A DNA stretch of 64,000 bases from an uncultured virus (IMG/VR IMGVR_UViG_3300042448_001291) (lineage: Duplodnaviria > Heunggongvirae > Uroviricota > Caudoviricetes). Made by a program: the position numbers and the translations under genes. Numbering within the stretch: the stretch's first letter is position 1; each line of letters begins with the position of its first letter. Positions 28,625 through 63,849 of the stretch are shown in pieces. Location of the stretch: the IMG/VR virus record IMGVR_UViG_3300042448_001291; one strand, 5' to 3'. Under the pieces are notes generated by a model. That model was not told the origin of the DNA. It saw nothing but the letters and a program-made list of their open reading frames with translations, and searched no databases.

Positions 28625-28730
28625 TTTAATTAATATACGAAAAAATATCCAAAATAAAAACCCTGAACGAATATAGAATTAACATTTTAAAATGTCAAAA
28701 AAAATAATTATATTACCCAAAATATTAGAT

Positions 28731-29984: not shown

Positions 29985-29985
29985 G

Positions 29986-31716: not shown

Positions 31717-32485
31717 TTTTGCATTTTGTACTTTGGTTTATGGTGAAAAGTATACGAAACTAAGTAAAACATTAATAAACCAAATAACTAACATGGGTTA
31801 TAAAATTTTCGTTTACACGAATAATGTAGAAGCGTTTGAACCAAATGATAACATTATTTTATTAGAATATACCAAATCATATTTTTCTTTTCATGAAAAA
31901 TTAACGGTGGTTAGAGAATGTTTAAAACAATTTGAAACCGCAATATTTTTAGATTCTGATGTTGTTTTAAAGGACATCGACAATCTGGATTTTTTTGAAA
32001 ATATTGATCCTGGATTACATATTTTTGCCACATTTGGGAACATTGGATCAACGTTTTTTTCTGATGATCATCCTAGGTGTGAAAATTTAAATCAAAGAAA
32101 TACAAAGTATGGTAATGCTGGTTTAGAATTGGTGAACACGTTAGGTTATAAATGTAAAAAAGAATACCACCCAGGTATTGAGGAAGAAGCGTACATTGAG
32201 CATTATTTAGAAGGTAGATGGATTGTCAAAAAAGACAATGGTAAAGAAGAAAAGTTTTTTCAAATCTGGGAAAGTATGGTTGATTTTTGTGAAACCTTTG
32301 ATATTAATTTAGGGTACTTAAACACAATTGGTGCAGGAGAGGGTTCGGTTATGTCAATAGCGTGCTATAATAGTGGAATATCTTATAAAGGTATTAGTCC
32401 ATTAGTAACAATAATGAATAGATATTTCATATCAAACTACCAAGAAAAATTGGATGGCACTAAGCCATGGAATATCGCAGGATAA
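31709..32485 (+). CDS. Putative glycosyltransferase (DxD)
   Basis: IFLDSDV; similar to the middle domain of the preceding gene. Confidence 0.65.
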   Translation: MNNFAFCTLVYGEKYTKLSKTLINQITNMGYKIFVYTNNVEAFEPNDNIILLEYTKSYFSFHEKLTVVRECLKQFETAIFLDSDVVLKDIDNLDFFENIDPGLHIFATFGNIGSTFFSDDHPRCENLNQRNTKYGNAGLELVNTLGYKCKKEYHPGIEEEAYIEHYLEGRWIVKKDNGKEEKFFQIWESMVDFCETFDINLGYLNTIGAGEGSVMSIACYNSGISYKGISPLVTIMNRYFISNYQEKLDGTKPWNIAG

Positions 32486-32495
32486 AATTAAAAAT

Positions 32496-33590
32496 ATGTT
32501 TAAAGATTTAGAAATTCACACATTAATATGTAATCGCGACTTAATGTTAGCAATAAACAACTTTAAGTCAATACAAAAATTTGAAGAATTTTCTGAAGTA
32601 CCAGTTATTTTGCATGATGACGGTTCGTTAACTGATTCAGATATTGAGATTCTACAAACAATAAAAAATGTAATTATTATCAGGCGCGCGCATGCTGACG
32701 AATTAATACGTGAATATGTGCAAGACCACCCAAATTGTTTAGAATACAGATTAGGTGATAACAAAATAAATTTATGGCATAAAATAAAATCATTTGATTA
32801 TTGGTTTTTCTCAAAAACAAAGAATGTATTGGGCATGGATACCGATCTTTTATTTTTAAGAAAACCAGAGAACGTTATTGAACTGATAAAAAGTAATACG
32901 CCGTTCTATTATCCAGATATCCAAAGTGCGTATTGTTTTAATGAGCCAAAATCTGAAATTCCGGTAATTGAGAAAGTGAACACTGGGTTAATTTACATTC
33001 CGTCAGAAGAATATTATAGCATTAACGATATTGAAAACGCTTTAAGTAACCTATTAAAAAATGGGATCAACTACTTTCCTTCTTGGATAGAACAGTCAGC
33101 ATATGCTCACATGTTTTATAAGAATGGCAAGTATGTTTCATTGTCTGATCAAAAATATAAAATACCATATTTTCAAAAAGTAGATATCGAAGTAACCGAA
33201 TGTTTACACTTTGTAAGTTATCCCGCAGTTAGGGAAACATATCAAACCTATTTAGAGTACCTTGAATTTGAAACCGGAGACCTAGTGTATGAAACCGAGT
33301 TCACCACAAAATATAAGGAAATTACAATCCCGTCAAATTTTAAAATACATAAAAGCAATGGGGTGTATAATATGACTTACTACTGGGGTTTAGAAGAAAC
33401 ATCACAACAATTTTTAGATCATATTTTTAAAATACATACTGAAGAGGGTGTAATTGAAAAAAAATTACAATCAGATAAAAATGGTTTTTTTATATTCACA
33501 ACAAAATCAAATGTGGTAAAAATAGAACACACATATGATTGGTATGGTGAAAACGAATGGGTTGAAATTGGAGAAATAACACTTTCTTGA
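32496..33590 (+). CDS. Putative glycosyltransferase with C-terminal EHTYDW domain
   Basis: HDDGSL, MDTDLLF, VNTGL, EQS. Confidence 0.7.
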   Translation: MFKDLEIHTLICNRDLMLAINNFKSIQKFEEFSEVPVILHDDGSLTDSDIEILQTIKNVIIIRRAHADELIREYVQDHPNCLEYRLGDNKINLWHKIKSFDYWFFSKTKNVLGMDTDLLFLRKPENVIELIKSNTPFYYPDIQSAYCFNEPKSEIPVIEKVNTGLIYIPSEEYYSINDIENALSNLLKNGINYFPSWIEQSAYAHMFYKNGKYVSLSDQKYKIPYFQKVDIEVTECLHFVSYPAVRETYQTYLEYLEFETGDLVYETEFTTKYKEITIPSNFKIHKSNGVYNMTYYWGLEETSQQFLDHIFKIHTEEGVIEKKLQSDKNGFFIFTTKSNVVKIEHTYDWYGENEWVEIGEITLS

Positions 33591-36258: not shown

Positions 36259-38508
36259 ATGCAGATTCTTATATCAGAGAAACAACTTAAGCACATAATT
36301 TCAAAAATGGCTCTTAATCAAGAGATTAGTGAAGAGGGTGAGGAAGGTGCTGGGGAACCAGAAGCGGGAACTTCCAGTGATGGAGACAAGAAAACAGGTG
36401 CAACAAAGTGGGAAAGTGGTGTAACTAGAGGACCTGCTAATCAAATCGGTGTTACTAAATGGTCTGATATTGTTGGTTCAACATTAAAGAGAGGTAAAGC
36501 GAATCCACTATCAGAACAAGGTGGTGCAACAGAAATCCCTCCGCTTACTGACACATACAAAACATTTTGGGGTGAAACCATTGAATTACCCCGTGACAAA
36601 TATGGTAATGAAGTATATAAAGTAGAGTTATGGAATGCTTCAACAAATAGAGTTAAAGCGTGGAATTTGAATCCGGAAGGGAAATATTATGTAACAAGAA
36701 AGATAAATGGCGAAGATAAACAGTTTACTTACGACGCTCCTTATGAAGGATATCTTAGGAAATTATTTCCAGATGGAACAATTAAGTCAATAACAGACAC
36801 TCGCACTGGTAAAAGGTATGGTACTACAATGTCTATAAATGATTTATCGGAAATAGTTAAAAAGAGAGGTGAAACTGAAAGTTCATTTCCTGCAATGATG
36901 AAAGCAGTTGATTTAAATGTACCAGCAACGTATCAATGGCTGCCAAGATATGGTTATTTTTATTATTCTGATCCGGTACATATGGAAGGTGAGGAATCGT
37001 TTCCTATGATTAAGAAAGCGAAAATTTCAAAAGATTATGATTATTTTAGTAAAACCCCATATACCAGACAAGATGAGGTTAATAGGTACATGAATAGAAA
37101 ATCATATAACGGTTTAGATGTACCGAAAGGTATGGACCCAAACAAGTATGATGAATATGTTTGGAGAAGAAATAAGATAACTGATAATGTTAGCGGTTTT
37201 GATAGTGACGGTAACAAATACTTTGGTTCGATAACTCCTGAACAAGAAAGGATGTTAGCCGATTTAGATAAAGAATATATGAGTCCGGAAGGTGAGGGCG
37301 GTGTTCCAGAATTTAGTTATGGTACCGATGATAAAACTAGAGAAAAATATTTTGAACTTAAGAAAAAATACGAAGATTTTTATAATCCAAAAATAGCGGA
37401 ATTAGAGAAGATAGTGGCTTTTACACCTTCAGAGATAGGTGGTAGTAAGGGTTCTTTTGGTGGCGATGGTTATGTTGAAGATGCTGAATCTAACCCAGCA
37501 TATTATACAGCACTTGGTCAATTGAATAAGTTAAAAAAAGAAAAAGATGAAAAATTAACCAAATTAAAATCAATTTTTGGTTATGATTATCAACATCCAA
37601 GTATATTTGGAAAAGGTTTTGATGAGTTCTGGGATACCTGGGGTACACCTATACAGATCCTTGGTAACATTGCAATTATTGTCGGTAGTGGTGGGCTCGC
37701 TTCGATATTCACTGGTAGTGCGGCGATAACTGCCAGATTATTAGCAGTACCTGTTGCCGATGCTGCGTTCAATGGACTAGTTGCTGCTTATCAAAAAAAT
37801 AGAGGTCAAGATACCGAAGCATTAATATCATTTGTTTGTGCGTTAGTACCAATTGGAAAGTATGGATTTGGTATTGCAAAAGTAAATAAAGAAGTATGTT
37901 TGGAATTAGCAGCAAAAATAAGAAATGAGGGGGCAGGATTGTTTAAGGATATGAACAGATTAGGGGATTTTGTTGCTTTATTAAGTGATGAAGAACGTTA
38001 TATTTTAAGAAATGTGGTGTCATTAGATAAAGAAGTTATTAAGAGTGGTACGGACGAATTTTTAAAAGATTTTAGAACATATGCCGATGTTATGGGTAAA
38101 AAAGTGGTTGCTGCAAGTGTAAAAACTTGGAGACCATATTTCATGAAAGAGTTTGGGTTTGAGGGTGGGTTACCATTAGCCGCAGGAATTTTAAATGGAA
38201 TTTTTAAATTTGTTGAGGATAAAAATAAACAATGGAACTATCCTCCGGAGCAATTAATGTCCATAAAGAAAGCGATAAAAGATGGTATGGACGGTTTAAA
38301 TAGTACAGAAGATTTAGAGAAATTATTATTTGCTAATGACATTGCCAATATGTTAGAAGACCAACAACAAAAAGGGTCAGTTAAAGAGTTGGCTAACGGA
38401 GTTTCTGGGATTTTTGCAAATAAAACATTTAAGAATATGACCGAAGAGGATGTTAAGAGGGTTGATGTAAATTTAAAATTGGTTGAAGATATTAAGGAGA
38501 AGCAATAA
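36259..38508 (+). CDS. Large putative virion protein with leader and hydrophobic C-terminal segments
   Basis: MQILISEKQLKHII; KWESGVTRGPANQI / KWSDIVGSTLKRGKANPL repeat; hydrophobic region at ~aa 460-530. Confidence 0.75.
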   Translation: MQILISEKQLKHIISKMALNQEISEEGEEGAGEPEAGTSSDGDKKTGATKWESGVTRGPANQIGVTKWSDIVGSTLKRGKANPLSEQGGATEIPPLTDTYKTFWGETIELPRDKYGNEVYKVELWNASTNRVKAWNLNPEGKYYVTRKINGEDKQFTYDAPYEGYLRKLFPDGTIKSITDTRTGKRYGTTMSINDLSEIVKKRGETESSFPAMMKAVDLNVPATYQWLPRYGYFYYSDPVHMEGEESFPMIKKAKISKDYDYFSKTPYTRQDEVNRYMNRKSYNGLDVPKGMDPNKYDEYVWRRNKITDNVSGFDSDGNKYFGSITPEQERMLADLDKEYMSPEGEGGVPEFSYGTDDKTREKYFELKKKYEDFYNPKIAELEKIVAFTPSEIGGSKGSFGGDGYVEDAESNPAYYTALGQLNKLKKEKDEKLTKLKSIFGYDYQHPSIFGKGFDEFWDTWGTPIQILGNIAIIVGSGGLASIFTGSAAITARLLAVPVADAAFNGLVAAYQKNRGQDTEALISFVCALVPIGKYGFGIAKVNKEVCLELAAKIRNEGAGLFKDMNRLGDFVALLSDEERYILRNVVSLDKEVIKSGTDEFLKDFRTYADVMGKKVVAASVKTWRPYFMKEFGFEGGLPLAAGILNGIFKFVEDKNKQWNYPPEQLMSIKKAIKDGMDGLNSTEDLEKLLFANDIANMLEDQQQKGSVKELANGVSGIFANKTFKNMTEEDVKRVDVNLKLVEDIKEKQ

Positions 38509-38534
38509 TATTTATATATTAATAAGAACACAAA

Positions 38535-40319
38535 ATGAATAGAAATTTAATTACGGAAATAAAAAACCAAAGAAAACTAATGGGTCTTCTAAATGAAGGT
38601 GTAACAACAAGATTTGTGGAAGGTTTAAAAAGCGTTTTTAGGTTTGGGGAGGCGGAAACCACTAACATATCACTTTTTAGATCTCTATTTAATTCAATGG
38701 ATAGTTCTGTTATTAGTGAATTAGAGCAATTAGGTATTAGAGATTTTGACGCAATGGCTAGAGACATTAAATTACCATATAGAACCGGCGGTCAAATAAA
38801 TCCCGCAAAAAAAATATCGGACGCCATGGCTGAAAAAATTGTGAACGCAATGGAGGGGGTGATATTCAAAGATAAAAAATTTGGTACTTTGGGTGACGCG
38901 GTTGTTGATGCGTTTTTTGATTTAAAGGGCGCTAACGCACTAACAAAACAAAAATATTACCAATTAGTTGGTTATGCGACAAATGGTCAACAAGAAATGA
39001 TGTTGGCATTAAGAAAAGAATTAGAACCCTTTATTGATAAGACATTTTTAGATTTTGCAACTAGTAAATATGTTGCACAAGTTGTTAACAATGTTGCTGA
39101 CGAACCTAGTTTTTGGAAAAAGTTTGTAGGTGGTTTGAGTTCTGGTAATAGTTTATCAAGCCCATTTGCTTTATTCAAAAGGAGTTATGTTACATCATTA
39201 CCATCAAAAGAAACAGACGAATTATTTACTGAATTTTTTGCTTTAGCAAAATCAATTGAAAACAAAATGGCAACAAATAGTGGTGATTATGTTTTTGATC
39301 AAGAGATTCAAAAAATGAATGAAATTTTGGCTAAGATTGCTAGAATTAGACAACAAAACCTTAAGAATCTTTGGGAAAAATGGAGAGACAATGTACCTGC
39401 TTTTATGAAAACAGAAATTGAAAAAACAGGTGGAGCAGAAAGTGAATTATATATAAAATATGTAAAATATTTTGAATCTGTTACTGGACGCGAAACAGGT
39501 AGTAATAAAGTAGGTGAAGTATTAGCAAGACCAGATTATCTTATGTCCAGAATAAAGGCGTTTAAAAAAATATTTATTGCGCCAGCAAAAGGTGAAAAGT
39601 CAGTGGGCCAAAGAATGGGTACAGTATTACAAAGAGTATTTAATGGCGCATTTCTAGGTGATTTTAGAACATATAAAGAAATTGGTGAGGCATATAAAAT
39701 ATTAGGTAGAAGTAATGCGAGAATTGCTGGTCTTATGGTTGCTGAAAGAGCATGGTCTTATTTCTTATATTTTCCAATATTTTACGGATTTCTTCAAACG
39801 TGGCTGGATCTATGGGAAAAAGATGGTGGATATAAAATGAGTCCAGATGGTAAAACACCGGTTCTCGATAAAAATGGTAATCCAATACCAAATAGAAATA
39901 TTTGGGGTGGTGATGGAAAAAAATTCATAAGAGAAAACGAGGAAGGAATAAAAGCGTTTATGGAGGTTTGGGGACAAAATATTTGGGCTGAATACCAATT
40001 TTCTAGTGAAAGCGTGGTGAGAGGTAGATTTATTTCACCAGTAGGTTCAGAAATAATATCACACTTTTTAACCAGACCAGATTACGGTAGTAAAGCGGTC
40101 AATATTACAAAAGAAAAAACTTTTGTTGAGAAGCGACTTGATTCTGCAACCAAGAAATATAATGAGGACGTTGCTAGATTACGAAAACAAATAAGTGATC
40201 TTGATAGCGCGTCAAAAGCAGCAGCAGATAACTTAATTCAAAAAGCAGATAGTATTAAAAGTAGTGTTACTGGTAAAACTGATAAAATAGTTAGTACAAT
40301 TGATAGTGTGGAATTTTAA
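38535..40319 (+). CDS. Large putative virion protein with leader
   Basis: LITEIKNQRKLMGLLNE; one transmembrane-like segment. Confidence 0.75.
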   Translation: MNRNLITEIKNQRKLMGLLNEGVTTRFVEGLKSVFRFGEAETTNISLFRSLFNSMDSSVISELEQLGIRDFDAMARDIKLPYRTGGQINPAKKISDAMAEKIVNAMEGVIFKDKKFGTLGDAVVDAFFDLKGANALTKQKYYQLVGYATNGQQEMMLALRKELEPFIDKTFLDFATSKYVAQVVNNVADEPSFWKKFVGGLSSGNSLSSPFALFKRSYVTSLPSKETDELFTEFFALAKSIENKMATNSGDYVFDQEIQKMNEILAKIARIRQQNLKNLWEKWRDNVPAFMKTEIEKTGGAESELYIKYVKYFESVTGRETGSNKVGEVLARPDYLMSRIKAFKKIFIAPAKGEKSVGQRMGTVLQRVFNGAFLGDFRTYKEIGEAYKILGRSNARIAGLMVAERAWSYFLYFPIFYGFLQTWLDLWEKDGGYKMSPDGKTPVLDKNGNPIPNRNIWGGDGKKFIRENEEGIKAFMEVWGQNIWAEYQFSSESVVRGRFISPVGSEIISHFLTRPDYGSKAVNITKEKTFVEKRLDSATKKYNEDVARLRKQISDLDSASKAAADNLIQKADSIKSSVTGKTDKIVSTIDSVEF

Positions 40320-41671: not shown

Positions 41672-41675
41672 AAAG

Positions 41676-42067
41676 TGGAGATGACGGGACTCGAACCCGT
41701 GTCTTTCCTGTTCAACAATAAATGACTACACGTTTATTACAACATTGTTTCTCAATGTTCCGAAATATCAGGTTTGATGTATGTGAGAAACCTACCTGCA
41801 AACAACTTGGTCTCAGAGTTATTTTAAGAGGGCTCTGACCTGTGACCCTCATAACGGACTTCTGTTCCCAGGTTATATGTCCACCGACCCGAGGGTGGCA
41901 CCCAACTTAGTTAGGCAGCCACTTTAGAAGTTGCAAGTAAACCTGCAATTTCCATGTTGTTGTAAACGTTGCCGTTTGAATTTTTTCACCGTAGATTAAA
42001 GTCATAGATGAATTCTGACTACGTGCCATTTATCCCTGATACCTGAAATCAATTCCGTGGCATCCCC
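41676..42067 (-). ncRNA. ssrA: tmRNA; predicted tag (A)GNVYNNMEIAGLLATSKVAA
   Basis: 5' GGGGATG...GGAATTGA; 3' T-arm ACGGGTTCGAGTCCCGT and CATCTCCA with G3:U70; tag frame 41911-41973 ends in AA-stop. Confidence 0.92.
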
Positions 42068-42363: not shown

Positions 42364-43047
42364 TCAGCGGTCTATCCTTAGGGGTAATAAATGCCCATAT
42401 TTCGCCTCAAAAAACAGTTTATTCTTTTCCCATTGTTTATTAACCATACCAACAGATTTGTGGATCACAAGTACCTTGGTGGTTACCCCCACCTTGACTC
42501 CACTTACATAATTCGATACACAGAACGGAATATCATAAAAGTGAAAACCAGGAAATTCCTCGTCAAACCCGTTCGCAATTCGCGATTTGCAAACTGCGAA
42601 AAATAAGCCATCAACCGCAATAACTTCTTTCATATTTTCACCGTAGGTCCCTGAATAGTTATTTCTATGTACCTTACCTTGATGTTCATGTTTAACTTGA
42701 CCAAACATTGATGCTCTATCTGTCCACCACATACCATTAATTAAATTATCAGTGCCAGCAATTCCAATTATTCCAAATTCTGGATTTTTCTCAAATAATT
42801 TAATAATCTTATTAGTGACATTTGTGGTCTCAATAATAAGATCGTCGTGCATAAAAACAACAATATCATTACTACTTTCATTTAATCCTCTATTGTATAA
42901 TTGAGGTAATGAAAATTCGCCATTATTCTCATAAATTATAATCTCAGTTTTTGGATGAGAAAACATCTTACTAACATGTTTAAGGTAGTCATCATCAATT
43001 TTACGTGTTGATATGACAACACTTATAGGGTAATTATTCTTCGACAT
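42364..43047 (-). CDS. GT2-like glycosyltransferase
   Basis: YNRGLNES, VFMHDDL, VDGLFFA, FHFYD. Confidence 0.85.
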   Translation of the reverse strand: MSKNNYPISVVISTRKIDDDYLKHVSKMFSHPKTEIIIYENNGEFSLPQLYNRGLNESSNDIVVFMHDDLIIETTNVTNKIIKLFEKNPEFGIIGIAGTDNLINGMWWTDRASMFGQVKHEHQGKVHRNNYSGTYGENMKEVIAVDGLFFAVCKSRIANGFDEEFPGFHFYDIPFCVSNYVSGVKVGVTTKVLVIHKSVGMVNKQWEKNKLFFEAKYGHLLPLRIDR

Positions 43048-43783
43048 AGGTTGCTATAATTTGTCCGTCGTATTCGTTTAGATCAACAACGATTGGTTTA
43101 TTTGATGGGTTATAACCTGCGGTACAAGTTGACGCATTAACATATAATGTATCATCTAAATAAGTTACACCGTATCCTTCATGTATATGTCCAAATACGT
43201 TTAATGCTGGTTTAATACGTTCCATGTGAAACCTAAGTGATTCACAGCCAACATTTCTATTGGGTTGTCTAAAATTATTAACTAAATCTAAGACCCCATT
43301 TGGGGGGCTGTGTGTAATTAATACGTCAGTATCGTCAGGGACCATACTCCACTTTTTATCTAGTTCATCACCTAATCTTGGTAAGTTAAATGCCCAATCG
43401 TAGAACCAAGGTTGCCAAGGACTACCGTAAAATTTGATAGGTCTTGAGAACTCAGGAGTTTCAATTGTAATAAAACTATCCTCCAAATAAGTCACGTCAG
43501 ATTGTGATAAATTCTCCGGTGACATTAAATGATTTAACCAATCATAATCTCCTTTATGATGTGGTAAATTAACTCTTTCAAAACAATGGTCGTGATTACC
43601 GGCGATGAATATTTTAGAATCAAATCCTTTTATGTTTTGAAACCAATGTATAAATTCAGTAACGTCTCGTTCACCACCTCTATTCGATATATCACCAGCA
43701 TGTACTAATACGTCACCATCAGGTATTTGGTGCATCATATTGTTTTGCAAACTATGTGTATCTGATATACAAACTATTCTCAT
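43034..43783 (-). CDS. Calcineurin-like metallophosphoesterase
   Basis: ISDTH, HAGD, IAGNHD, LITHSPP, FGHIHE. Confidence 0.92.
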   Translation of the reverse strand: MRIVCISDTHSLQNNMMHQIPDGDVLVHAGDISNRGGERDVTEFIHWFQNIKGFDSKIFIAGNHDHCFERVNLPHHKGDYDWLNHLMSPENLSQSDVTYLEDSFITIETPEFSRPIKFYGSPWQPWFYDWAFNLPRLGDELDKKWSMVPDDTDVLITHSPPNGVLDLVNNFRQPNRNVGCESLRFHMERIKPALNVFGHIHEGYGVTYLDDTLYVNASTCTAGYNPSNKPIVVDLNEYDGQIIATYVEE

Positions 43784-43815: not shown

Positions 43816-43844
43816 AAAAAAAAAGTCAGAATTTCTTCTGACTT
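43816..43844 (-). terminator. Terminator closing the large ncRNA
   Basis: AAGTCAGAA-GAAA-TTCTGACTT followed by a long T-run. Confidence 0.8.
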
Positions 43845-43854
43845 AATTTTTTTG

Positions 43855-44730
43855 TATAGGCCGTATGGTTTTACATACATTCACCACCACTTTGTTTTTC
43901 TAAACAAAGAAAATAAAACTCTGAGAATACAAGTTTTAACGAAACTCTTTAAAAGGATTATTTGATTCCCCTTATTTCCACTAACTTTTGATTAGTAAGT
44001 TTCAGCCACGGTCAATTAGATTAACCAATCCTTTCGTAACACCCTACTCTATTAGTACTCATCACTCATCAAATCTGCCGACCTGATTCAACCTTGCGGG
44101 TTTAGAGAACTTTCTTAAAAATCATATTGGGCTTGAGACCCTTTATGGCTGTGAACCCCTCACAACTATGTAGTGACCTATCGGACATTACGCACGAACA
44201 CTTTTTCTTTTTATGTATGATTTTTATACCAAAATAAAAATTTAGTTTCCGAATTATTCAGGTAGCGGTTCGTGACCAGCCAAATCACCTTTTGAGCGAC
44301 TCGATACTAAACTACCCGATATGACATCCCTGTCATCATATTTTTGGTTTCCTTCGAGATTAAACCCTTGGTAGGATTTATTCAAGGACACTAACAGCAC
44401 CACCTGTTTTTTGTCATACCTTCCGTCTTACGACGCTACGGTTTTAAGACCACCATTGTATTGAATTACGCAATGATATAGTCGGATAACTATACTTCTT
44501 ACATGAACTCTATGGATTATTCTTATTGATGTTCCCATCTCAACCAAACAACTCGGATTGCTTGGTCATCCAACCCTTTCGCTACGGAGTTACCCTCACT
44601 ACTTCAGGTTAAATGATATTCCACTTGTCTACTCGAGATCCATTTCTGAATCCGCAACTTATCCTAACCAAGGACTTGTCACTTTATCCCACTTTCATGG
44701 TTTATTTTGTTGACCATAGACGGCCAATAT
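43855..44730 (-). ncRNA. Large (~870 nt) structured ncRNA, GOLLD/ROOL-class candidate
   Basis: No convincing ORF; TATATTTG promoter at 44767-44774; terminator below; 5' GGCCGT(CT)ATGGT pairs with 3' ACCATACGGCC; many hairpins. Confidence 0.7.
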
Positions 44731-44809
44731 TTTTAAATCAAAGATCTATTATTGTTACTTGTTATGCAAATATAGAGAAAAGAATTGAAATAAAAAACTT
44801 TTTTTAAAA

Positions 44810-45495: not shown

Positions 45496-45522
45496 TTTAT
45501 TTCATTTAATATAGTTATTTTG

Positions 45523-45612
45523 CGGAAAGTGAGGGACTTGAACCCTCGCGCCAGTTTGACCCGACCTAGCAGTTTAGCAAACTGCCCCCTTCACCAACTT
45601 GGGTAACTTTCC
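45523..45612 (-). tRNA. tRNA-Ser(GCT), array 1
   Basis: Cloverleaf; GCAGT-TTGCTAA-ACTGC; long variable arm. Confidence 0.95.
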
Positions 45613-45613
45613 G

Positions 45614-45844
45614 TTAGAAGATTTGTTTTTCTTGTCTTCTTTTTGCTTCTTCGGCCTCCTTTACCATTCTTATCCAAGTAATAGAGACATCAATGGGCGC
45701 TAAAACCCAAGCCATCATTAATACCATAATAGAATCTAGTTCTGGTGATGTTCCGTAATCAACACCTCTGTTTCTATACTTTTTATTTAATTGATAGAAA
45801 CAATAAACAACACATAATACATAATACCCAATTAGTATACTCAT
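45614..45844 (-). CDS. Small membrane protein within tRNA array 1
   Basis: MSILIGYYVLCVV..., two hydrophobic segments. Confidence 0.65.
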   Translation of the reverse strand: MSILIGYYVLCVVYCFYQLNKKYRNRGVDYGTSPELDSIMVLMMAWVLAPIDVSITWIRMVKEAEEAKRRQEKQIF

Positions 45845-45856
45845 AATTAAAAATTT

Positions 45857-45931
45857 TGGTTGTCCCCCAGGGAATCGAACCCCACTTATCTGGACCAAAA
45901 CCAGATGTAATAACCGATATACGAGAGGACA
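45857..45931 (-). tRNA. tRNA-Gln(TTG), array 1
   Basis: TCTGG-TTTTGGT-CCAGA; encoded CCA. Confidence 0.95.
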
Positions 45932-45992
45932 AAATAATCATCATTGAGAATGTAGATTTTCACTAACTCGATTTAGCGGTCTCTTTGATGAT

Positions 45993-46067
45993 TGGAGCAG
46001 ATGAAAGGAATCGAACCTTCGTCTCCAACTTGGAAGGATGGAGTAATAACCATTATACGACATCTGC
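45993..46067 (-). tRNA. tRNA-Gly(TCC), array 1
   Basis: CCATC-CTTCCAA-GTTGG; encoded CCA. Confidence 0.95.
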
Positions 46068-46124
46068 ATTTGGTGACTGAAAAACATCTATCTTTCTTTT
46101 TGGTATTGTCACCGGATACCCATG

Positions 46125-46196
46125 AGCCCCCGCCCGGAATCGAACCGAGTTATCATGATTACAAGTCATGCGCATCGCCTGCAATGCTTAAAGGGC
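46125..46196 (-). tRNA. tRNA-Thr(TGT), array 1
   Basis: CATGA-CTTGTAA-TCATG. Confidence 0.92.
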
Positions 46197-46201
46197 TGTT
46201 G

Positions 46202-46273
46202 AGCAGTAGAGAGGAATCGAACCTCCGTCTCCACCTTGGCAAGGTGGAGTAATGACCATTATACGACTACTGC
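46202..46273 (-). tRNA. tRNA-Gly(GCC), array 1
   Basis: CCACC-TTGCCAA-GGTGG. Confidence 0.95.
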
Positions 46274-46277
46274 ATTG

Positions 46278-46350
46278 TAGAAGATGAGGGAATTGAACCC
46301 CCGACTTTTTGCATGTAAGACAAACACTCTACCAACTGAGTTAATCTTCT
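46278..46350 (-). tRNA. tRNA-Val(TAC), array 1
   Basis: TTTGT-CTTACAT-GCAAA. Confidence 0.95.
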
Positions 46351-46355
46351 ATTTG

Positions 46356-46429
46356 TGGACCAGGATGGACTCGAACCATCGACTTTCACATTATGAGTGT
46401 GCTACTCTAACCAACTGAGTTACAAGTCC
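46356..46429 (-). tRNA. tRNA-Ile2(CAT) (lysidine type; elongator Met not excluded), array 1
   Basis: CACA-CTCATAA-TGTG; G1:C72, A73; not initiator-like; two other CAT tRNAs are in array 2. Confidence 0.8.
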
Positions 46430-46432
46430 AGG

Positions 46433-46538
46433 TGCCGGAGGAAGGATTGATTACCTACACGGTGTCCATTTCGGATACACCACCCACCTAGGAAGGGAAC
46501 GTCTCAAGGTTGTACACACCTCTTTTCGCCACTCCGGC
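46433..46538 (-). ncRNA. Aberrant tRNA-Leu-like RNA (expanded D region, degenerate T loop)
   Basis: Perfect acceptor stem GCCGGAG/CTCCGGC-A; extra AGGT/ACCT hairpin; long variable arm; no TTC in the T loop. Confidence 0.55.
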
Positions 46539-46543
46539 ATGTG

Positions 46544-46700
46544 TGAGTTACGGGGGATTCGAACCCAAGAATATAATTTGTAATCTACTACGTACTCGAT
46601 TAACAACATTCTTTTTACCATAGTCATCTCCGCGGCCACAGAGTTTATAGACACCTTCAATTACTAGGAAGGTCCGGATCGCCACTCCGGAAGGTAACTC
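46544..46700 (-). ncRNA. 157-nt tRNA-like RNA with ~85-nt insertion
   Basis: Acceptor GAGTTAC/GTAACTC-A; GGGTTCGAATCCC T loop; TCCGGA/TCCGGA and CCTTC/GAAGG arms. Confidence 0.55.
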
Positions 46701-46706
46701 ATTTTG

Positions 46707-46787
46707 TGGGAGTAAGTGGACTCGAACCACTGAACTCGATGAGGGGGGATTTACAGTCCCCTGCAATTGCCGCTATGCGATACTCCC
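46707..46787 (-). tRNA. tRNA-Tyr(GTA), array 1
   Basis: GGGGA-CTGTAAA-TCCCC. Confidence 0.95.
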
Positions 46788-46833
46788 ATTCTGTACATTC
46801 CTAACCTGACGTATACATACAAACCGTTTTCCG

Positions 46834-46914
46834 TGACCAAGGAGAGATTCGAACTCTCACGTCTTTCGACATTGGTTCCTAAGACCAACGTGTCTACCAT
46901 TCCACCACTCGGCC
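46834..46914 (-). tRNA. tRNA-Leu(TAG), array 1
   Basis: TTGGT-CTTAGGA-ACCAA; long variable arm. Confidence 0.95.
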
Positions 46915-46919
46915 ATTTG

Positions 46920-46991
46920 CGTCCCTACCTGGATTCGAACCAAGAATAATTGATTAACAGTCAAACGTGATCACCATTTCACCATAGAGAC
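46920..46991 (-). tRNA. tRNA-Asn(GTT), array 1
   Basis: TTGA-CTGTTAA-TCAA. Confidence 0.92.
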
Positions 46992-46998
46992 ATTTTTG

Positions 46999-47072
46999 TC
47001 GAGATAGCAGGATTCGAACCTACGGCCTCTTGCTCCCAAAGCAAGCGCGATACCGGACTACGCTATATCTCG
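46999..47072 (-). tRNA. tRNA-Pro(TGG), array 1
   Basis: CTTGC-TTTGGGA-GCAAG. Confidence 0.95.
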
Positions 47073-47079
47073 ATGATTG

Positions 47080-47151
47080 TAGACCCACGTGGACTCGAAC
47101 CACGAATATCTCATTAGAAGTGAGAAGTTATATCCCTTTAACTATGGATCC
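47080..47151 (-). tRNA. tRNA-Arg(TCT), array 1
   Basis: TCTCA-CTTCTAA-TGAGA. Confidence 0.95.
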
Positions 47152-47159
47152 AATTGCTG

Positions 47160-47246
47160 TGCCCCAGGCGGGAATCGAACCCGCACGAACATTTACGGTT
47201 CACGGGATTTTAAGTCCCGCGCGTCTACCAGTTCCGCCACCAGGGC
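47160..47246 (-). tRNA. tRNA-Leu(TAA), first gene of array 1
   Basis: CGGGA-CTTAAAA-TCCCG; long variable arm. Confidence 0.95.
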
Positions 47247-47302
47247 AATTTTACACAATATGTCAAAGATCTAACTAATATAGGAAATAAACCCAAGAAA
47301 AC

Positions 47303-47335
47303 AAAAAACCCGAACTTTTTTTAAGGTTCGGGTTT
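47303..47335 (-). terminator. Attenuator terminator upstream of tRNA array 1
   Basis: AAACCCGAAC-CTTAAAAAAA-GTTCGGGTTT followed by TTTGTTTT. Confidence 0.85.
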
Positions 47336-47365
47336 CGATATTTTGATGTTTTAAATCCTAATTTC

Positions 47366-47464
47366 TCACAACTCCGAACTTGATACACATAACTGCACAC
47401 CATACCCGTTACCATTGTTACCCGGTCTACTCGTAAGCGTCAATATGTTATTTAAATTCTTCAT
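47366..47464 (-). CDS. 32-aa leader peptide of tRNA array 1: MKNLNNILTLTSRPGNNGNGYGVQLCVSSSEL
   Basis: ATG..TGA between promoter and terminator; codons 3-25 all match array-1 anticodons. Confidence 0.85.
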   Translation of the reverse strand: MKNLNNILTLTSRPGNNGNGYGVQLCVSSSEL

Positions 47465-47482
47465 CGTTATTATAAGTATATG

Positions 47483-47513
47483 CAAATATATAAAAGTTTT
47501 TTGAAAAAACAAC
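47483..47513 (-). promoter_or_regulatory. Bacteroidetes-type sigma promoter for leader 1
   Basis: GTTG-19 nt-TATATTTG (consensus TTTG-19..21-TAnnTTTG). Confidence 0.7.
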
Positions 47514-47578
47514 TATATTGAAAAAATTTGTTTAATAATTAAGAAATATTCTTTATATTGCATTATAAAATCTTAATT

Positions 47579-48100
47579 ATGAATCTAAGAGAAGCCACTG
47601 CGGAATTACATAGTAAAGCAGAAAAAATGGAATTTAACCAAAAAATGTTTAGAGGTGAATTGAGTAAGAAAGAGTACTTACATTACCTTATCCAACAATC
47701 AGTAATATTTCAATGTATTGAGGAACACACATTACCACAAATAACACCTGAATTAAAAAGATTAAAAAATGTCTTTGAGGATATTCAAGAGTTACAAAAA
47801 GATGTAAGAGATAAATTGCCAGGATTAGAATCAACAAAAAAATATGGTATCTATTTGGAATCATTAAAAGGAGAAAAAGTTCTTGCTCATGTTTATTTAA
47901 ATTACTTAGCGTTGGTTTTTGGTGGCCAAATGATGAAATCTAAAGTTCCTGGTAATGGTAAAATGTATATGTTTGAGAATGTTCAAGAAGTAATTCAAAA
48001 TGTGAGAGGATTTCAAACTGATGACATGGCTGAAGAAGTAAATAAAGGTTTTAATTTTATAATTGATATATTAGATGAATTACAAAAAAACGCTGGATAG
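47579..48100 (+). CDS. Heme oxygenase (HemO/Ho1-like)
   Basis: LREATAELHSKAE proximal His; LAHVYLNYLALVFGGQMMK distal helix. Confidence 0.88.
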   Translation: MNLREATAELHSKAEKMEFNQKMFRGELSKKEYLHYLIQQSVIFQCIEEHTLPQITPELKRLKNVFEDIQELQKDVRDKLPGLESTKKYGIYLESLKGEKVLAHVYLNYLALVFGGQMMKSKVPGNGKMYMFENVQEVIQNVRGFQTDDMAEEVNKGFNFIIDILDELQKNAG

Positions 48101-48710
48101 TATTGCAAATCGAATACAAGATTTAATAACAATTACCGCTAACGGTGTTGAAATTCCTACTGAAGATTTTGGTTGGAAAAATAAAAGATATGTTGGTAGT
48201 AAGTTTCGTATCGCACATATAGAAAGATACTCCGATAAAAATCTAGAAGTATTACACTTTACGTGTTTTCCAGATTCAACATATCAACACCCAATTTTTG
48301 GTTTTGATATTATTACAACAGATAAGAAACCACTTGCAGCATTTTTAGATTGGTCTCCGGTTGATAATGTTTTAAGTTATATATGTCTTGAAGAATTTAA
48401 AAAACTATACCCATTACCTGAATGGGCTAAAATTATTTTTTCACAAACACCAATAGCAATTATTCCAGATGATTCTGAAATGGAAAAATTAGGAGAAGTT
48501 GTAATTCAAAGTTTTGAAGATTATTTAACTATTTTAAATAATTCGACCCCATCAATTAAAAGATCGAATTACATTATTGCAGCACAAAATAGATATTGTG
48601 AACAACAGCAAAAAAACGAAAGGACATATAATGTGTTAAAAGCAAAACTTGGCGAAGAAAAGGCCAAGTTCTTTATGTCAGAAATTTTATTCCCAAGAAT
48701 CGCAAATTAA
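48075..48710 (+). CDS. Ferredoxin-dependent bilin reductase (PcyA/PcyX-like)
   Basis: FRIAHIE, EVLHFTCFP, PIFGFDI, FLDWSP, LPEWA..IFS, QNRYCEQQQKNERT...LFP. Confidence 0.85.
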   Translation: MNYKKTLDSIANRIQDLITITANGVEIPTEDFGWKNKRYVGSKFRIAHIERYSDKNLEVLHFTCFPDSTYQHPIFGFDIITTDKKPLAAFLDWSPVDNVLSYICLEEFKKLYPLPEWAKIIFSQTPIAIIPDDSEMEKLGEVVIQSFEDYLTILNNSTPSIKRSNYIIAAQNRYCEQQQKNERTYNVLKAKLGEEKAKFFMSEILFPRIAN

Positions 48711-48883
48711 AATCCTCTCCTTTTGTAAACACGGCTAGGTGCACGATACAAAATATTTGGTTGATATTTTCCTATCGTTGCTTTTCTTTTAAAATGATTA
48801 TGATATCTGTGATGATGTGGTTTAATTATTACACAGCCACTTAACGTAGCAATAATCAGTATAAAAAATATTATCTTTTTCAT
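48707..48883 (-). CDS. 58-aa His/Arg-rich lipoprotein (not in ORF track)
   Basis: MKKIIFFILIIATLSGC lipobox, then HHHRYHNH; upstream TATTTAT. Confidence 0.6.
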   Translation of the reverse strand: MKKIIFFILIIATLSGCVIIKPHHHRYHNHFKRKATIGKYQPNILYRAPSRVYKRRGF

Positions 48884-48899
48884 ACTAATAAATATCCAG

Positions 48900-48971
48900 T
48901 ACTCGGTACGGGATTCGAACCCGTGCTACGTCCGTGAAAGGGACGCGACCTAACCACTAGTCGAACCGAGC
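48900..48971 (-). tRNA. tRNA-Glu(TTC), array 2
   Basis: CGTCC-CTTTCAC-GGACG. Confidence 0.95.
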
Positions 48972-48976
48972 AAGTG

Positions 48977-49062
48977 CGGAGAGAGTAGGATTCGAACCCA
49001 CGGTACCTTTCAGTACTTCGGTTTTCAAGACCGACGCGATAGACCAACTCTGCCATCTCTCC
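48977..49062 (-). tRNA. tRNA-Ser(TGA), array 2
   Basis: TCGGT-CTTGAAA-ACCGA; long variable arm. Confidence 0.95.
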
Positions 49063-49064
49063 GT

Positions 49065-49250
49065 TGACACCTTCATTTATCCAACTCACAGGTGTCTTAG
49101 ATGTCCCCTTTCGGGTTAGGAATAATCATTTCGTCCTCACGAGGTCGGGGTGATGTCCCCTGACGTTCTCCCTATACGTCAATGTACGTTTCCATATGGT
49201 GGTCAAACCATTTCTTTTCATATTGGATATACTATTCAGTGACTAACCGA
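49065..49250 (-). ncRNA. Putative structured RNA between tRNA-Asp and tRNA-Ser
   Basis: Hairpins TGACGT/ACGTCA, GGGG/CCCC, CCT-CGTG-AGG, CCC-GAAA-GGG, GACACCT/AGGTGTC. Confidence 0.5.
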
Positions 49251-49256
49251 ATCGTG

Positions 49257-49330
49257 CGGACTGTACGGGACTCGAACCCGTGAACTCTACCGTGACAGGG
49301 TAGCATGATAACCAACTTCACCAACAATCC
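49257..49330 (-). tRNA. tRNA-Asp(GTC), array 2
   Basis: CTACC-CTGTCAC-GGTAG. Confidence 0.95.
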
Positions 49331-49414
49331 GTGTTTGATACTAACTCACCTTAAATTGCACCTACTGGTCATGCCATGGTTAACAAAGTCCTCGTTGAGT
49401 TAGATCAAAAAAGG

Positions 49415-49601
49415 TTACAGGTTTTTCGTACCCATTCGTACATCATAACAAATACATTTCTATATCTGTGGTTACATTTTCGTCATTGGGTTAATTACAC
49501 CCGACTTGTAGCAACTCTACTTTCACCGCTATGATACCGCGAATCAAGACGGGTGTTAAGATTTATAGACAGTGGGTTTCCACCACCGTCGTCACCTGTA
49601 A
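49415..49601 (-). ncRNA. Putative ~190-nt multibranch RNA
   Basis: Closing stem TTACAGGT/ACCTGTAA around arms GACGGTGG/CCACTGTC, ACACCCG/CGGGTGT, ACCCA/TGGGT. Confidence 0.55.
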
Positions 49602-49606
49602 TTTCT

Positions 49607-49726
49607 TTACTTTCTTCTACGCTGACGTAAAGCGCAGCCAGCAACAGATTTATATGCTTTTGTAGTTCTTTTACTTCTTAAAGCACTACTTGCTTTTCTT
49701 GCCACTCTTCTTGACGTTCTAGCCAT
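49607..49726 (-). CDS. 39-aa Arg/Lys-rich protein
   Basis: MARTSRRVARKASSALRSKRTTKAYKSVAGCALRQRRRK. Confidence 0.65.
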   Translation of the reverse strand: MARTSRRVARKASSALRSKRTTKAYKSVAGCALRQRRRK

Positions 49727-49741
49727 AGTTAAAAGTTTTTG

Positions 49742-49813
49742 TTGCGAGGGAAGGGATCGAACCTCCGACCTTTGGGTTATGAGCCCAACGAGCCACCGCT
49801 GCTCTACCTCGCG
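49742..49813 (-). tRNA. tRNA-fMet(CAT), array 2
   Basis: C1:A72 mismatch; TTGGG-CTCATAA-CCCAA with three G:C pairs. Confidence 0.95.
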
Positions 49814-49870
49814 ATGTTTTGCAAATATAGAAAATATTTTTAAAATAAAAAAATATTCCAAATATTTTTG

Positions 49871-49939
49871 TTGCGGGGCCAGGAATCGAACCTGAATATC
49901 TGGCTTATGAGACCAAACGGATTACCTAATCTCCCCACA
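49871..49939 (-). tRNA. tRNA-Met(CAT) with short D arm, array 2
   Basis: TTGGT-CTCATAA-GCCAG; acceptor TGTGGGG/CCCCGCA. Confidence 0.8.
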
Positions 49940-49940
49940 A

Positions 49941-50017
49941 TGGGGTGATCGACGGGATTCGAACCCGCTTTATTCTAGTGCCACAAACTAGTGCTCCACC
50001 GTACGAGCATCGATCAC
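49941..50017 (-). tRNA. tRNA-His(GTG), array 2
   Basis: CTAGT-TTGTGGC-ACTAG; C73 and encoded CCA. Confidence 0.92.
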
Positions 50018-50019
50018 AG

Positions 50020-50090
50020 AGTCACGTGCAGGAATCGAACCTGCGTAGAAGGTTTTGCAGACCTCCGCCTAACCACTCGGCCAACCTGAC
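50020..50090 (-). tRNA. tRNA-Cys(GCA), array 2
   Basis: GAGGT-CTGCAAA-ACCTT; U73. Confidence 0.95.
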
Positions 50091-50097
50091 TTATTTG

Positions 50098-50168
50098 AGG
50101 TCTCACAGGGATTCGAACCCCAATCATCTCGTCCGTAGCGAGACGTTTTTCCATTAAACTATGAAACC
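50098..50168 (-). tRNA. tRNA-Arg(ACG), array 2
   Basis: TCTCG-CTACGGA-CGAGA. Confidence 0.95.
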
Positions 50169-50172
50169 ATTT

Positions 50173-50592
50173 TTATAGGCAATTTTGCTTATATTTTTCC
50201 TCAGTACCAATTCCAATTGGGACAAACAACGCAAAACCATCGTCATCTTCAAAATGGTTACAAGTATCCTCAAATACATTTTGAAATTTTGTTCTCATAT
50301 AAACAAATTCCTTTCCATTCCATTTGGCCACTTGTGCGTTCCTGTGTTCACCAATATAATATTGACCCTCAACTAAATCTTTTTTAGGGATTGCACCTGC
50401 CTCAATTAATTTTGGGACATAATAATCCTTCCATTCCTGAATGTCTACTTTTGGTAAATCAGGTACGTCCCTTGGAGTATTAATTTTTGGGAGATTTTCC
50501 CAATACTCTTTTATTCTTTGTTTTCTTTCCTCTCTTATTTGGATAAGTTGTGCTTTCGCTTTTAACTTAAATCCTTCTACGTTGTTTTCCAT
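50173..50592 (-). CDS. Hypothetical protein within tRNA array 2
   Basis: 139-aa ORF. Confidence 0.75.
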   Translation of the reverse strand: MENNVEGFKLKAKAQLIQIREERKQRIKEYWENLPKINTPRDVPDLPKVDIQEWKDYYVPKLIEAGAIPKKDLVEGQYYIGEHRNAQVAKWNGKEFVYMRTKFQNVFEDTCNHFEDDDGFALFVPIGIGTEEKYKQNCL

Positions 50593-50632
50593 ATTTTACA
50601 AATTGTAAGTGTTTTACTTTACATATTATTAG

Positions 50633-50703
50633 CACGGGTAGAGAGATTCGAACTCCCATCGAGGGTTTTGGAGACCCGTATGCTGCCGTTGCACCATACC
50701 CGC
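50633..50703 (-). tRNA. tRNA-Trp(CCA), array 2
   Basis: GGGT-CTCCAAA-ACCC; G73. Confidence 0.95.
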
Positions 50704-50708
50704 GTGTG

Positions 50709-50782
50709 TGACCCCTTTAGGACTCGAACCTAAAACCCCTACATTAAAAGTGTAGTGCGCTAACCAATTGTGCCAAGAGATC
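50709..50782 (-). tRNA. tRNA-Lys(TTT), array 2
   Basis: CTACA-CTTTTAA-TGTAG. Confidence 0.95.
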
Positions 50783-50842
50783 ATACTAACATTTTTTTGC
50801 ACACTAACATAAATTATGTTATCGTACAAATTTTTGTTATTG

Positions 50843-50915
50843 TGGAACCTCGGAGAGTCGAACTCCATCCTCTGGATTTTCAGTCCAGCGTACGCACCGG
50901 CTATACAAAAGTTCC
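50843..50915 (-). tRNA. tRNA-Phe(GAA), array 2
   Basis: CTGGA-CTGAAAA-TCCAG. Confidence 0.95.
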
Positions 50916-50920
50916 TTCAG

Positions 50921-50993
50921 TTCTTAGGGGTAGATTCGAACTACCAACCTCCTCGGTATCAGCGAGGTACTCTCACCATTGAGTTACCTAAGA
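50921..50993 (-). tRNA. tRNA-Ile(GAT), array 2
   Basis: CCTCG-CTGATAC-CGAGG. Confidence 0.92.
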
Positions 50994-50998
50994 ATTTG

Positions 50999-51068
50999 TG
51001 GACACGTTGGGAATCGAACCCATTCACTCTGATTGCAAATCAGGTGGTCTGCCATTGACATCCGGCCC
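50999..51068 (-). tRNA. tRNA-Ala(TGC), first gene of array 2 (irregular acceptor stem)
   Basis: CTGA-TTTGCAA-TCAG; G3:U70. Confidence 0.8.
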
Positions 51069-51384: not shown

Positions 51385-52173
51385 TTATTTACCCCAGTGC
51401 TTTATTCTTAATTCATCCATATCAATTGGTTCACGTTTCATATGATTACCCCTTGAGAAATTTGCACCTTTTTTAAGATACCCACCCAAAAAGTTTCTTC
51501 GCATTCTATTTGAATTATTTGGTTCAGACCCATGAACGCAATGTGAGTGTAATAGCACAACCTGACCTTTTCGAAGATATCCCTCTACCTTACGAAAATC
51601 ATGACCTTCTGGCATCACACATGGTTTACCTCTTTCATTACTCCAAAATGCTGGGTTTGTTTTAGTTCTTTCTTCATCCACCTCAATTGGTAATACTGGA
51701 AGACGATGCGAACCCTCATAATTCCAAACTGCACCATTTTCAGGGTCATGATTATCTAACGCTAATGCGGTGTTAATAATCTCGTTATGACCACATTTGG
51801 TATAAAAGGCGTTCTGATGTTGGTCGCGACCTAATTGTCCTGGCGGTTTAAAATAACACCAACTTTGCATTCCCTGGATTTCACCCTCCATTAAAAATTC
51901 AACCGCTTCTAGAATTTTTGGGTGAGCGAATAATTTTTCTAATTTATCAGAAAGTTTATGTGGGTAAGCAAACGGATCCCATTCACACCATATTTTACCG
52001 TCTGGGGCTTCGGTCCCGGTTCTTTCGTTTCTTAACCTATCTAATTCATCGTTTATCTCATCACATTCTTCTTCAGTTAATAGTTCCAAGGTGGTAAACC
52101 CCCTATATCTCCAATCAAATGTTATTTGTTGAACCTCAAGGTCACTAAGATGTTTAAAATTACTCATATACAT
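51385..52173 (-). CDS. Phytanoyl-CoA dioxygenase (PhyH)-family 2OG-Fe(II) oxygenase
   Basis: FKPPG...HQNAFY, ALDNHDPENG...GSH, HGSEPNNSNRMRR. Confidence 0.85.
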   Translation of the reverse strand: MYMSNFKHLSDLEVQQITFDWRYRGFTTLELLTEEECDEINDELDRLRNERTGTEAPDGKIWCEWDPFAYPHKLSDKLEKLFAHPKILEAVEFLMEGEIQGMQSWCYFKPPGQLGRDQHQNAFYTKCGHNEIINTALALDNHDPENGAVWNYEGSHRLPVLPIEVDEERTKTNPAFWSNERGKPCVMPEGHDFRKVEGYLRKGQVVLLHSHCVHGSEPNNSNRMRRNFLGGYLKKGANFSRGNHMKREPIDMDELRIKHWGK

Positions 52174-63436: not shown

Positions 63437-63849
63437 AAAAAGTTTGGATAAATGGATCATTTGATATTTTACATATTGGCCATGTACGGCTTATCAATTT
63501 TGCTAAATCCTATGGTACTATTCGAGTGGGATTGGACTCGGATGAAAGAATTCGTGAGAAAAAAGGAATATCTAGACCGCTCAATGGGTTACATGATCGC
63601 ATGGAGTTTATATCATCTATCTCTGGTGTTGATTCTGTTGTATCTTTTAATTCAGATTTGGAACTTGCTAGTTTAATTAAAGAATATAACCCAGATTATT
63701 TTGTCATTGGTGATGATTATATGGATAAACAAATAATAGGTTCAGAATATGCTAAAGAAATTGTATATTTTAATAAAATAAATGGTTATTCAACTACCGA
63801 GTTAATTCATAAATGTAAAAATGATGTTACAAAAACCAGTCGTTACTGA
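63433..63849 (+). CDS. Cytidylyltransferase-family nucleotidyltransferase, HldE/RfaE domain II-like
   Basis: NGSFDILHIGH, GLDSD, RP, GDDY, YSTT. Confidence 0.88.
   Translation: MKKVWINGSFDILHIGHVRLINFAKSYGTIRVGLDSDERIREKKGISRPLNGLHDRMEFISSISGVDSVVSFNSDLELASLIKEYNPDYFVIGDDYMDKQIIGSEYAKEIVYFNKINGYSTTELIHKCKNDVTKTSRY

Follow-up and report, generated by a model that had tools for sequence, protein, structure and literature searches.

GOLLD RNAs build hollow RNA cages, and the representative env-38 is described as a 14-mer by cryo-EM in a study that counts 806 non-redundant sequences in the family (PMC12286853). The stoichiometry of the cages varies, with 10-, 12- and 14-mers described, and the GOLLD RNA of Streptococcus agalactiae (700 nt) is one of the 12-mers (PMC12990946). 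ROOL is likewise a large, cage-forming phage RNA found near tRNAs. In this study, we focus on 64,000 nucleotides of DNA from an uncultured virus (IMG/VR record IMGVR_UViG_3300042448_001291), the whole of which is hereafter called the window. A first-pass annotation had pointed here to an RNA of ~870 nt beside a tRNA cluster, with its own promoter and terminator and with complementary ends, which could be GOLLD-like or of a new class. The features of the locus are collected in Table 1.

Table 1. Coordinates of the GOLLD gene, its signals and its neighbours in the window
Feature	Position	Strand	Evidence and remarks
tmRNA	41673-42067	-	Rfam, 84.8 bits; without tail unit
Metallophosphoesterase gene	43034-43783	-	Pfam PF00149, E 1.7e-15; downstream of GOLLD
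Intrinsic terminator	43816-43844	-	9-bp stem 43844-43823, U tract to 43816
Tail hairpin 2 and closing GCC	43859-43883	-	stem 43879-43874 with 43867-43862; contains 3' arm (43869-43859) of end-to-end helix
Tail core UGGUGG, complement of CCACCA 3' end	43884-43889	-	invariant in alignments A1 and A3, partly through pattern selection
Tail hairpin 1, first half of wcaG-like unit	43890-43909	-	8 bp; compensated variants in L008, L014, L228, L275
GOLLD conserved 3' domain and A/U-rich linker	43918-44319	-	RF02032 match over this interval; bridge loops B6-B10 located
GOLLD 5' domain, long env-38 type	44320-44726	-	env-38 comparison, alignment A2, covariation; bridge loops B1-B5 located
P1-loop pseudoknot	44721-44717 with 44631-44627	-	paired in 56/56; two-sided changes in 3/5 pairs; four pair types at one position
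GOLLD helix P1	44726-44722 with 44715-44711	-	93.9% of cells paired; two-sided changes in 3/5 pairs
boxA-like antitermination signal, leader	44738-44745	-	[TA]TCTTT[GA]A upstream of P1
Promoter -7 element TAnnTTTG, TATATTTG	44774-44767	-	sequence; enrichment upstream of P1 in GOLLD loci
tRNA cluster, 25-26 genes	45522-51068	-	Rfam, ARAGORN

Identity of the RNA and its phage neighbourhood

The Rfam scan that the first-pass annotation had proposed gave 28 matches in the window, namely GOLLD, one tmRNA and 26 tRNA matches, and no match to ROOL, RNase P or group I/II introns at the gathering score. The GOLLD match (RF02032) reaches 304.8 bits (E 2.9e-86; cut-off 150) over model positions 1-416, which is the whole model. 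The expectation of a large, structured, GOLLD-like RNA with its own transcription signals beside a phage tRNA cluster was right. The RF02032 model covers the GOLLD 3' domain only; the remaining, upstream part of the RNA is the GOLLD 5' domain of the long env-38 type with its stems P1-P12, according to a match by eye to the env-38 sequence and the bridge table in supplement 1 of PMC12286853. Both RNAs start with P1, an A-rich joint and a GAAA-capped P3, the residue numbers of the bridge table fit by eye, and the A/U-rich variable linker between the two GOLLD domains is present in the window RNA. The likeness to env-38 extends to the 3' domain, the 5' start (P1, L3), the order of the helices, counterparts of B1-B10 and the tRNA neighbourhood, at a length of ~810 nt as against 833 nt in env-38. 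Nevertheless, one GAAA loop in the 5' domain of the window lineage has received an extra hairpin (alignment A2 columns 343-357), the L10-L12 kiss shows one pair fewer, and a wcaG-like tail follows the RNA, whereas the cryo-EM construct stopped at the Rfam end (PMC12286853). The conserved 3' domain is also common to the S. agalactiae RNA, which is, however, described in PMC12990946 without P9, P11a-c and P21b, all of which the window RNA has.

The 5' 400 nt and the tail of the window RNA match no Rfam family at the cut-off, which could speak for a new class of large RNA. However, the Rfam model spans the 3' domain only and the 5' half corresponds to that of env-38, a published GOLLD, so that a new class has practically no chance of being the right reading; the first-pass annotation had itself stated that a strong GOLLD match would remove the novelty, and such a match is what was found. 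The gene-free stretch is very probably the minus-strand gene for a long, env-38-type GOLLD RNA of a freshwater huge phage of Bacteroidetes. The gene itself is one further sequence of a known family, and alone it changes nothing. The ~870 nt originally proposed divide into a structured RNA of ~810 nt (44726-43918) and a separate tail element in the remaining ~60 nt. With ORFs of at least 90 aa counted, the GOLLD stretch (1250 nt) exceeds every other gap except the two tRNA blocks, which measure 1659 and 1462 nt, and hence it is not the longest ORF-free stretch of the window, as had been stated. Small ORFs over the RNA (49, 51 and 64 aa) were set aside as genes because the GOLLD alignment has many frame-breaking gaps.

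The GOLLD relatives are viral contigs of 219-385 kb, those that are complete being 296-321 kb, and bS21 is encoded in four of the five related contigs searched. Both the protein and the sizes fit with the freshwater Bacteroidetes phages of 293-331 kb that are described as encoding bS21 in PMC9723584, the main text of which mentions neither GOLLD nor tmRNA. Dozens of ORFs in two regions of the window (1112-26324 and 36259-40319) share an N-terminal motif like MKKIIITESQLKRL, and glycosyltransferases, a PhyH dioxygenase, a PfkB kinase and a cytidylyltransferase are spread over 28692-33590, 42364-43047, 51385-52173 and 62699-63849. A heme oxygenase gene (PF01126) and a gene for a ferredoxin-dependent bilin reductase (PF05996) are embedded in the tRNA cluster but lie on the other strand (47558-48710, +). 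This pair is familiar from cyanophages, and is found here in a phage that looks Bacteroidetes-type. The tmRNA was missed by ARAGORN; its tag would be unusually long, comprising ~20 aa and ending in VAA, judging by its likeness to L329, and the tags of related phage tmRNAs have 20-24 aa vs 9-11 in hosts. Downstream of a tmRNA and a small gene, three loci (L123 1660-2200, L145 1640-2200, L074 1660-2100) have gene-free, structured-looking stretches of repeated units, in which no Rfam match was found at the cut-off. In L212, L264 and L266, GOLLD is closely followed by a candidate permuted tmRNA, according to ARAGORN.

Fold, bridge loops and complementarity of the two ends

The minus strand of 43850-44760 folds better than its shuffles (z = -4.69, with 0 of 20 shuffles as good). 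All three hairpins that had been noticed earlier (AACAG-GTGGTG-CTGTT, CC-GCAA-GG and TTTGTTT-AGAA-AAACAAA) are present in the sequence; the GUGGUG hairpin is the L11b kissing loop of bridge B5, and the GCAA hairpin is L21a of bridge B8. To collect homologs, viral and metagenome contigs as well as two huge-phage records were scanned with patterns. The 3'-domain pattern was found at 143 loci, of which 13 were dropped; the other 130 have an end that could be recognised, and 97 of these ends are distinct. Among these sequences were 61 different long GOLLDs of full length that are followed by 100 nt or more of DNA; 56 were aligned, five near-duplicates being left out, and their identity to the window RNA ranges from 55 to 97% (n = 56). 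In the 5' domain, 95.7% of the cells pair over 35 pairs in nine helices, and 23 pairs change on both sides (n = 56). The covariation amounts to 0.501 vs 0.189 when shuffled, exceeding 500 of 500 shuffles in a test that kinship among the sequences inflates, while controls with slid pairing reach at most 0.112. All ten bridge loops, B1-B10, were located in the window RNA, by eye from the published table, and are conserved or covarying. In particular, L3, L14 and L24 are invariant in 56/56 homologs, and the partners of B7 change together, from GA/CUCAA in the window to GC/CGCAA, GG/CCCAA and UC/CGAAA elsewhere. The alignment and covariation supplements published with PMC12286853 may already contain the P1 pseudoknot or the tails.

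As for the helix that had been proposed to join the two ends of the RNA, the complementarity is indeed present in the sequence, as 5' GGCCGT-CT-ATGGT (44725-44713) is complementary to ACCATACGGCC (43869-43859), but comparison does not support it as a conserved structural feature. The helix has 11 pairs and a 2-nt bulge, with shuffle p values of 0.03 and 0.003 in the window. In the ViennaRNA model, which leaves out pseudoknots and tertiary contacts, it dominates the partition function of the window sequence with a probability of 0.97-0.99 vs 0.01 for P1; taken in isolation, the competing pieces come out even in energy (-14.9 vs -5.0, -3.4 and -6.5 kcal/mol). A helix of this kind could work as a lineage-specific switch, the tail holding P1 in the precursor and blocking cage assembly until it is cut off. 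The relative L004 retains the helix through a G-U change, and L494 and L495 retain part of it (-14.6 and -15.0 kcal/mol; p 0.09 and 0.10). Such a switch is highly improbable, however, as the duplex of P1 and tail is better than shuffles at p < 0.05 in two of 13 tail carriers, the window and L004. The 96% identical relatives L003 and L005, as well as L024, have an uncompensated A-C mismatch, no two-sided changes were seen in this duplex, and in L008 and L014 the GGCC end is broken and P1 unchanged. Nor is there an advantage of the cognate partner, since the window tail pairs equally well or better with P1 of 33 other GOLLDs, related or unrelated and many of them tail-less, and units far from any GOLLD likewise end in GGCC or GACC.

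The 5' arm of the end-to-end helix consists of P1 and the P1 loop, both of which covary across the 56 homologs, and the 3' arm is found in tail-bearing loci only. As a conserved feature, the helix was rejected on the grounds that P1 and its pseudoknot occupy the same bases and that changes in the tail are uncompensated. Thus, as far as the compared sequences tell, the complementarity is probably not a conserved helix, and we take it to have arisen incidentally, since P1 holds a palindromic GGCC and the tail ends in G(A/G)CC.

The tail unit, its likeness to wcaG and its other locations

The tail between the GOLLD end and the terminator comprises ~50-60 nt, in the order hairpin 1, UGGUGG, hairpin 2 and CC (unit 43909-43859), and a descriptor of it has one match in the window vs a shuffled mean of 0.11. 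It is present in three of 85 GOLLD ends found irrespective of the tail. In a tree of 63 rows, which left out three further tail carriers and L499, ten tail carriers stand on one side of a branch with support 96/71, unstarred. The tail marks one GOLLD sub-lineage. Its closest described counterpart is wcaG (RF01761; PMC2864571), which has in common with it a U-run, a hairpin ending in AAG, UGGUG, a second hairpin and CC; the seed rows given there include the form GUGGUGGAGUC...GACCC and carry UGGU or UGGC at the core position. Nevertheless, wcaG consists of two tandem units, is placed in potential 5' UTRs and comes from cyanophage, whereas the window tail is a single unit at a 3' end, with the terminator directly after it, in a Bacteroidetes-type phage. 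Against RF01761, the window tail scores 14.6 and 11.9 bits, far from the cut-off of 42, and in the 11.9-bit match hairpin 1 aligns to the second hairpin of the model. The tail therefore resembles one wcaG unit at best and does not count as a wcaG member.

Single units are not confined to GOLLD. A pattern of hairpin 1 and core had at least 120 matches in viral contigs, and the matches listed comprise 102 distinct loci, of which 100 have enough flank and six are followed by a metallophosphoesterase gene (6/102). Among the 100 listed matches with enough flank, 27 units follow the stop codon of a protein gene (22 with terminator), 18 stand in arrays, nine follow GOLLD, eight precede a terminator only, six lie inside tmRNAs, three adjoin a tRNA or tmRNA, and 29 fall into no class. 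The GG...CC closure of hairpin 2 with an inner stem is found in 82 of these 100 listed units vs a shuffled mean of 37.9 and a maximum of 49. Of 20 listed unit loci that were scanned, six hold a wcaG RNA above the cut-off (46-99 bits), which in L435 covers the pattern-matched unit, and seven hold a tmRNA. A profile of the GOLLD tails finds the tmRNA copies at 33-42 bits vs 16.4 bits for the best chance pattern match.

The T-box antiterminator bulge is known to pair with the free ACCA end of uncharged tRNA. In a similar manner, the tail could be a cargo hook: the UGGU held between its hairpins would pair with the ACCA that is free in uncharged tRNAs or tmRNA, so that the cages of this lineage would display or load tRNA-like RNAs. 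Among the matches listed, UGGUGG is followed by A in 83/100 units and by AG in 62/100, and with AG the complementarity reaches CUCCACCA, the sequence at the tmRNA 3' end; this would suit a hook, as would the UGGU or UGGC of the wcaG seed rows (PMC2864571), the units in, after or before tmRNA and tRNA genes, and one RNA-library contig that joins GOLLD and tail. However, AG could simply be part of hairpin 2, and the window copy reads UGGUGGUG, not UGGUGGAG (2/100 units among the matches listed), with UG after the core. Minimum-energy folds leave UGGU open in 24/100 of the listed units. A hook on the cage is also difficult to reconcile with the rarity of the tail on unselected GOLLD ends, with the 27/100 listed units behind stop codons of protein genes, and with the L375/L499 relative, which has a unit before the phosphoesterase gene and none behind its GOLLD. 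We thus consider the hook quite improbable. A more general proposal, by analogy with the T-box, is that the wcaG unit would be a portable trap for CCA ends, with UGGN stacked between the hairpins to catch uncharged tRNA or tmRNA, and that freshwater huge phages would have added single units to mRNA 3' ends, to tmRNA and to one GOLLD lineage; this we regard as very unlikely.

Several other interpretations of the tail were set aside. A tmRNA remnant does not agree with the units after stop codons and in arrays; a single pseudoknot, suggested by the window, L014 and the tmRNA copies, was not kept by the wider set; and for a self-cleaving ribozyme or other Rfam family there was no match near the cut-off. 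Three matches in bacterial genomes looked like chance in coding DNA, and no tail-unit match exceeded 7.7 bits in the 31 tmRNA loci of hosts that belong to the phylum of G002. Two earlier pattern scans (119 and 59 matches) yielded mostly chance matches. In the literature covered, consisting of titles, abstract openings and few subscription papers, no link of wcaG units to GOLLD or CCA ends was found.

Variants of these arrangements occur in the collected loci. In 11 of them (L074, L123, L130, L145, L169, L374, L385, L432, L445, L455, L460), a wcaG-like unit lies inside a phage tmRNA, where the pk3-pk4 region would be. Single units between a stop codon and a terminator are found in L224 (1894-1960), L241, L253, L204 and ~20 more loci; in many of them the gene ahead of the unit is one and the same small homolog, which lies downstream of GOLLD. 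In L029 (locus 664 downward, -), L192, L233 and L298, tRNA-like elements stand at the tail position after the GOLLD end, and the one in L029, which was checked, is uncalled by ARAGORN or Rfam.

Transcription signals and the possible role of the cage

The promoter and the strong terminator that had been read from the window were both recovered (Table 1). The octamer TAnnTTTG, which we take to be the Bacteroidetes-type -7 consensus, is common on its own, with ~95 matches in the window, and is enriched upstream of P1, where it lies within 122 nt in 35 of 62 GOLLD loci vs 14 of 244 control windows. A -33 TTTG box is not evident at the window promoter, and a sigma-70 promoter scan stayed at chance level (18 vs 18.4). 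A second leader octamer, [TA]TCTTT[GA]A, presumably a boxA in view of its likeness to that of rRNA operons, precedes P1 in 59 of the 62 loci vs 5 of 244 control windows. Judged by these sequence motifs, the promoter, the boxA-like signal and the terminator of the GOLLD gene are real. Many GOLLD leaders (e.g. L199, L202, L207, L232, L263) have an additional conserved leader segment after boxA and before P1, composed of UUAUCC, a variable long hairpin with UUCG loop and AAA(G/C)GAUAAU, which is absent from the lineage of the window.

Contigs from RNA libraries lie on the GOLLD gene in four runs from four studies; such contigs carry no RNA ends, strand or level, and the libraries can contain DNA. 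In run X1, a difference-free contig of 232 nt (43868-44099) bridges the GOLLD end into the tail, and a second difference-free contig covers 44235-44715. The flanking protein genes have 0 contigs, in runs that were picked by the GOLLD stretch, so that these gaps prove nothing.

In the mechanism we propose, the host polymerase would make a transcript of ~945 nt, starting near 44761, under rRNA-style antitermination. P1 and its pseudoknot would fold first, cotranscriptionally, and the end-to-end helix would be absent from the working RNA. The 810-nt body may then assemble into a dihedral cage like the env-38 14-mer, with the wcaG-like tail folding separately outside the cage, as a part of the transcript 3' end and not of GOLLD. 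During infection, the cage may hold or protect the RNAs of translation (tRNAs, tmRNA, ribosomes) as their scaffold or shelter, a role that is among the cargo hypotheses put forward in PMC12286853 and PMC12990946. We favour it, speculatively and with less than even confidence, because GOLLD is transcribed like and beside translation RNAs. Alternatively, the cage could act as a decoy or sink that draws off RNA-binding proteins or the defence nucleases of the host, the tRNA neighbourhood reflecting shared high-level transcription only. This would agree with the own promoter and terminator, which set GOLLD apart from the tRNA blocks, and with the description of a cage that is empty in vitro and of GOLLD rising during lysis (PMC12286853). 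However, no conserved protein partner or neighbour was found among the GOLLD loci collected, and we consider a decoy unlikely compared with the scaffold or shelter.

The boxA-like signal in 59/62 leaders suggests that these phages transcribe GOLLD like ribosomal RNA. In non-cyanobacterial phages, single wcaG-like units occur frequently at 3' ends and within tmRNAs; this speaks against wcaG being a metabolite switch of 5' UTRs, as it has been interpreted in the literature. If the trap for CCA ends were true, up to 14 copies per cage would be the first hint of the cargo of GOLLD cages, and the ~50-nt tail offers a cheaply testable handle on the putative tRNA binding by a GOLLD transcript.
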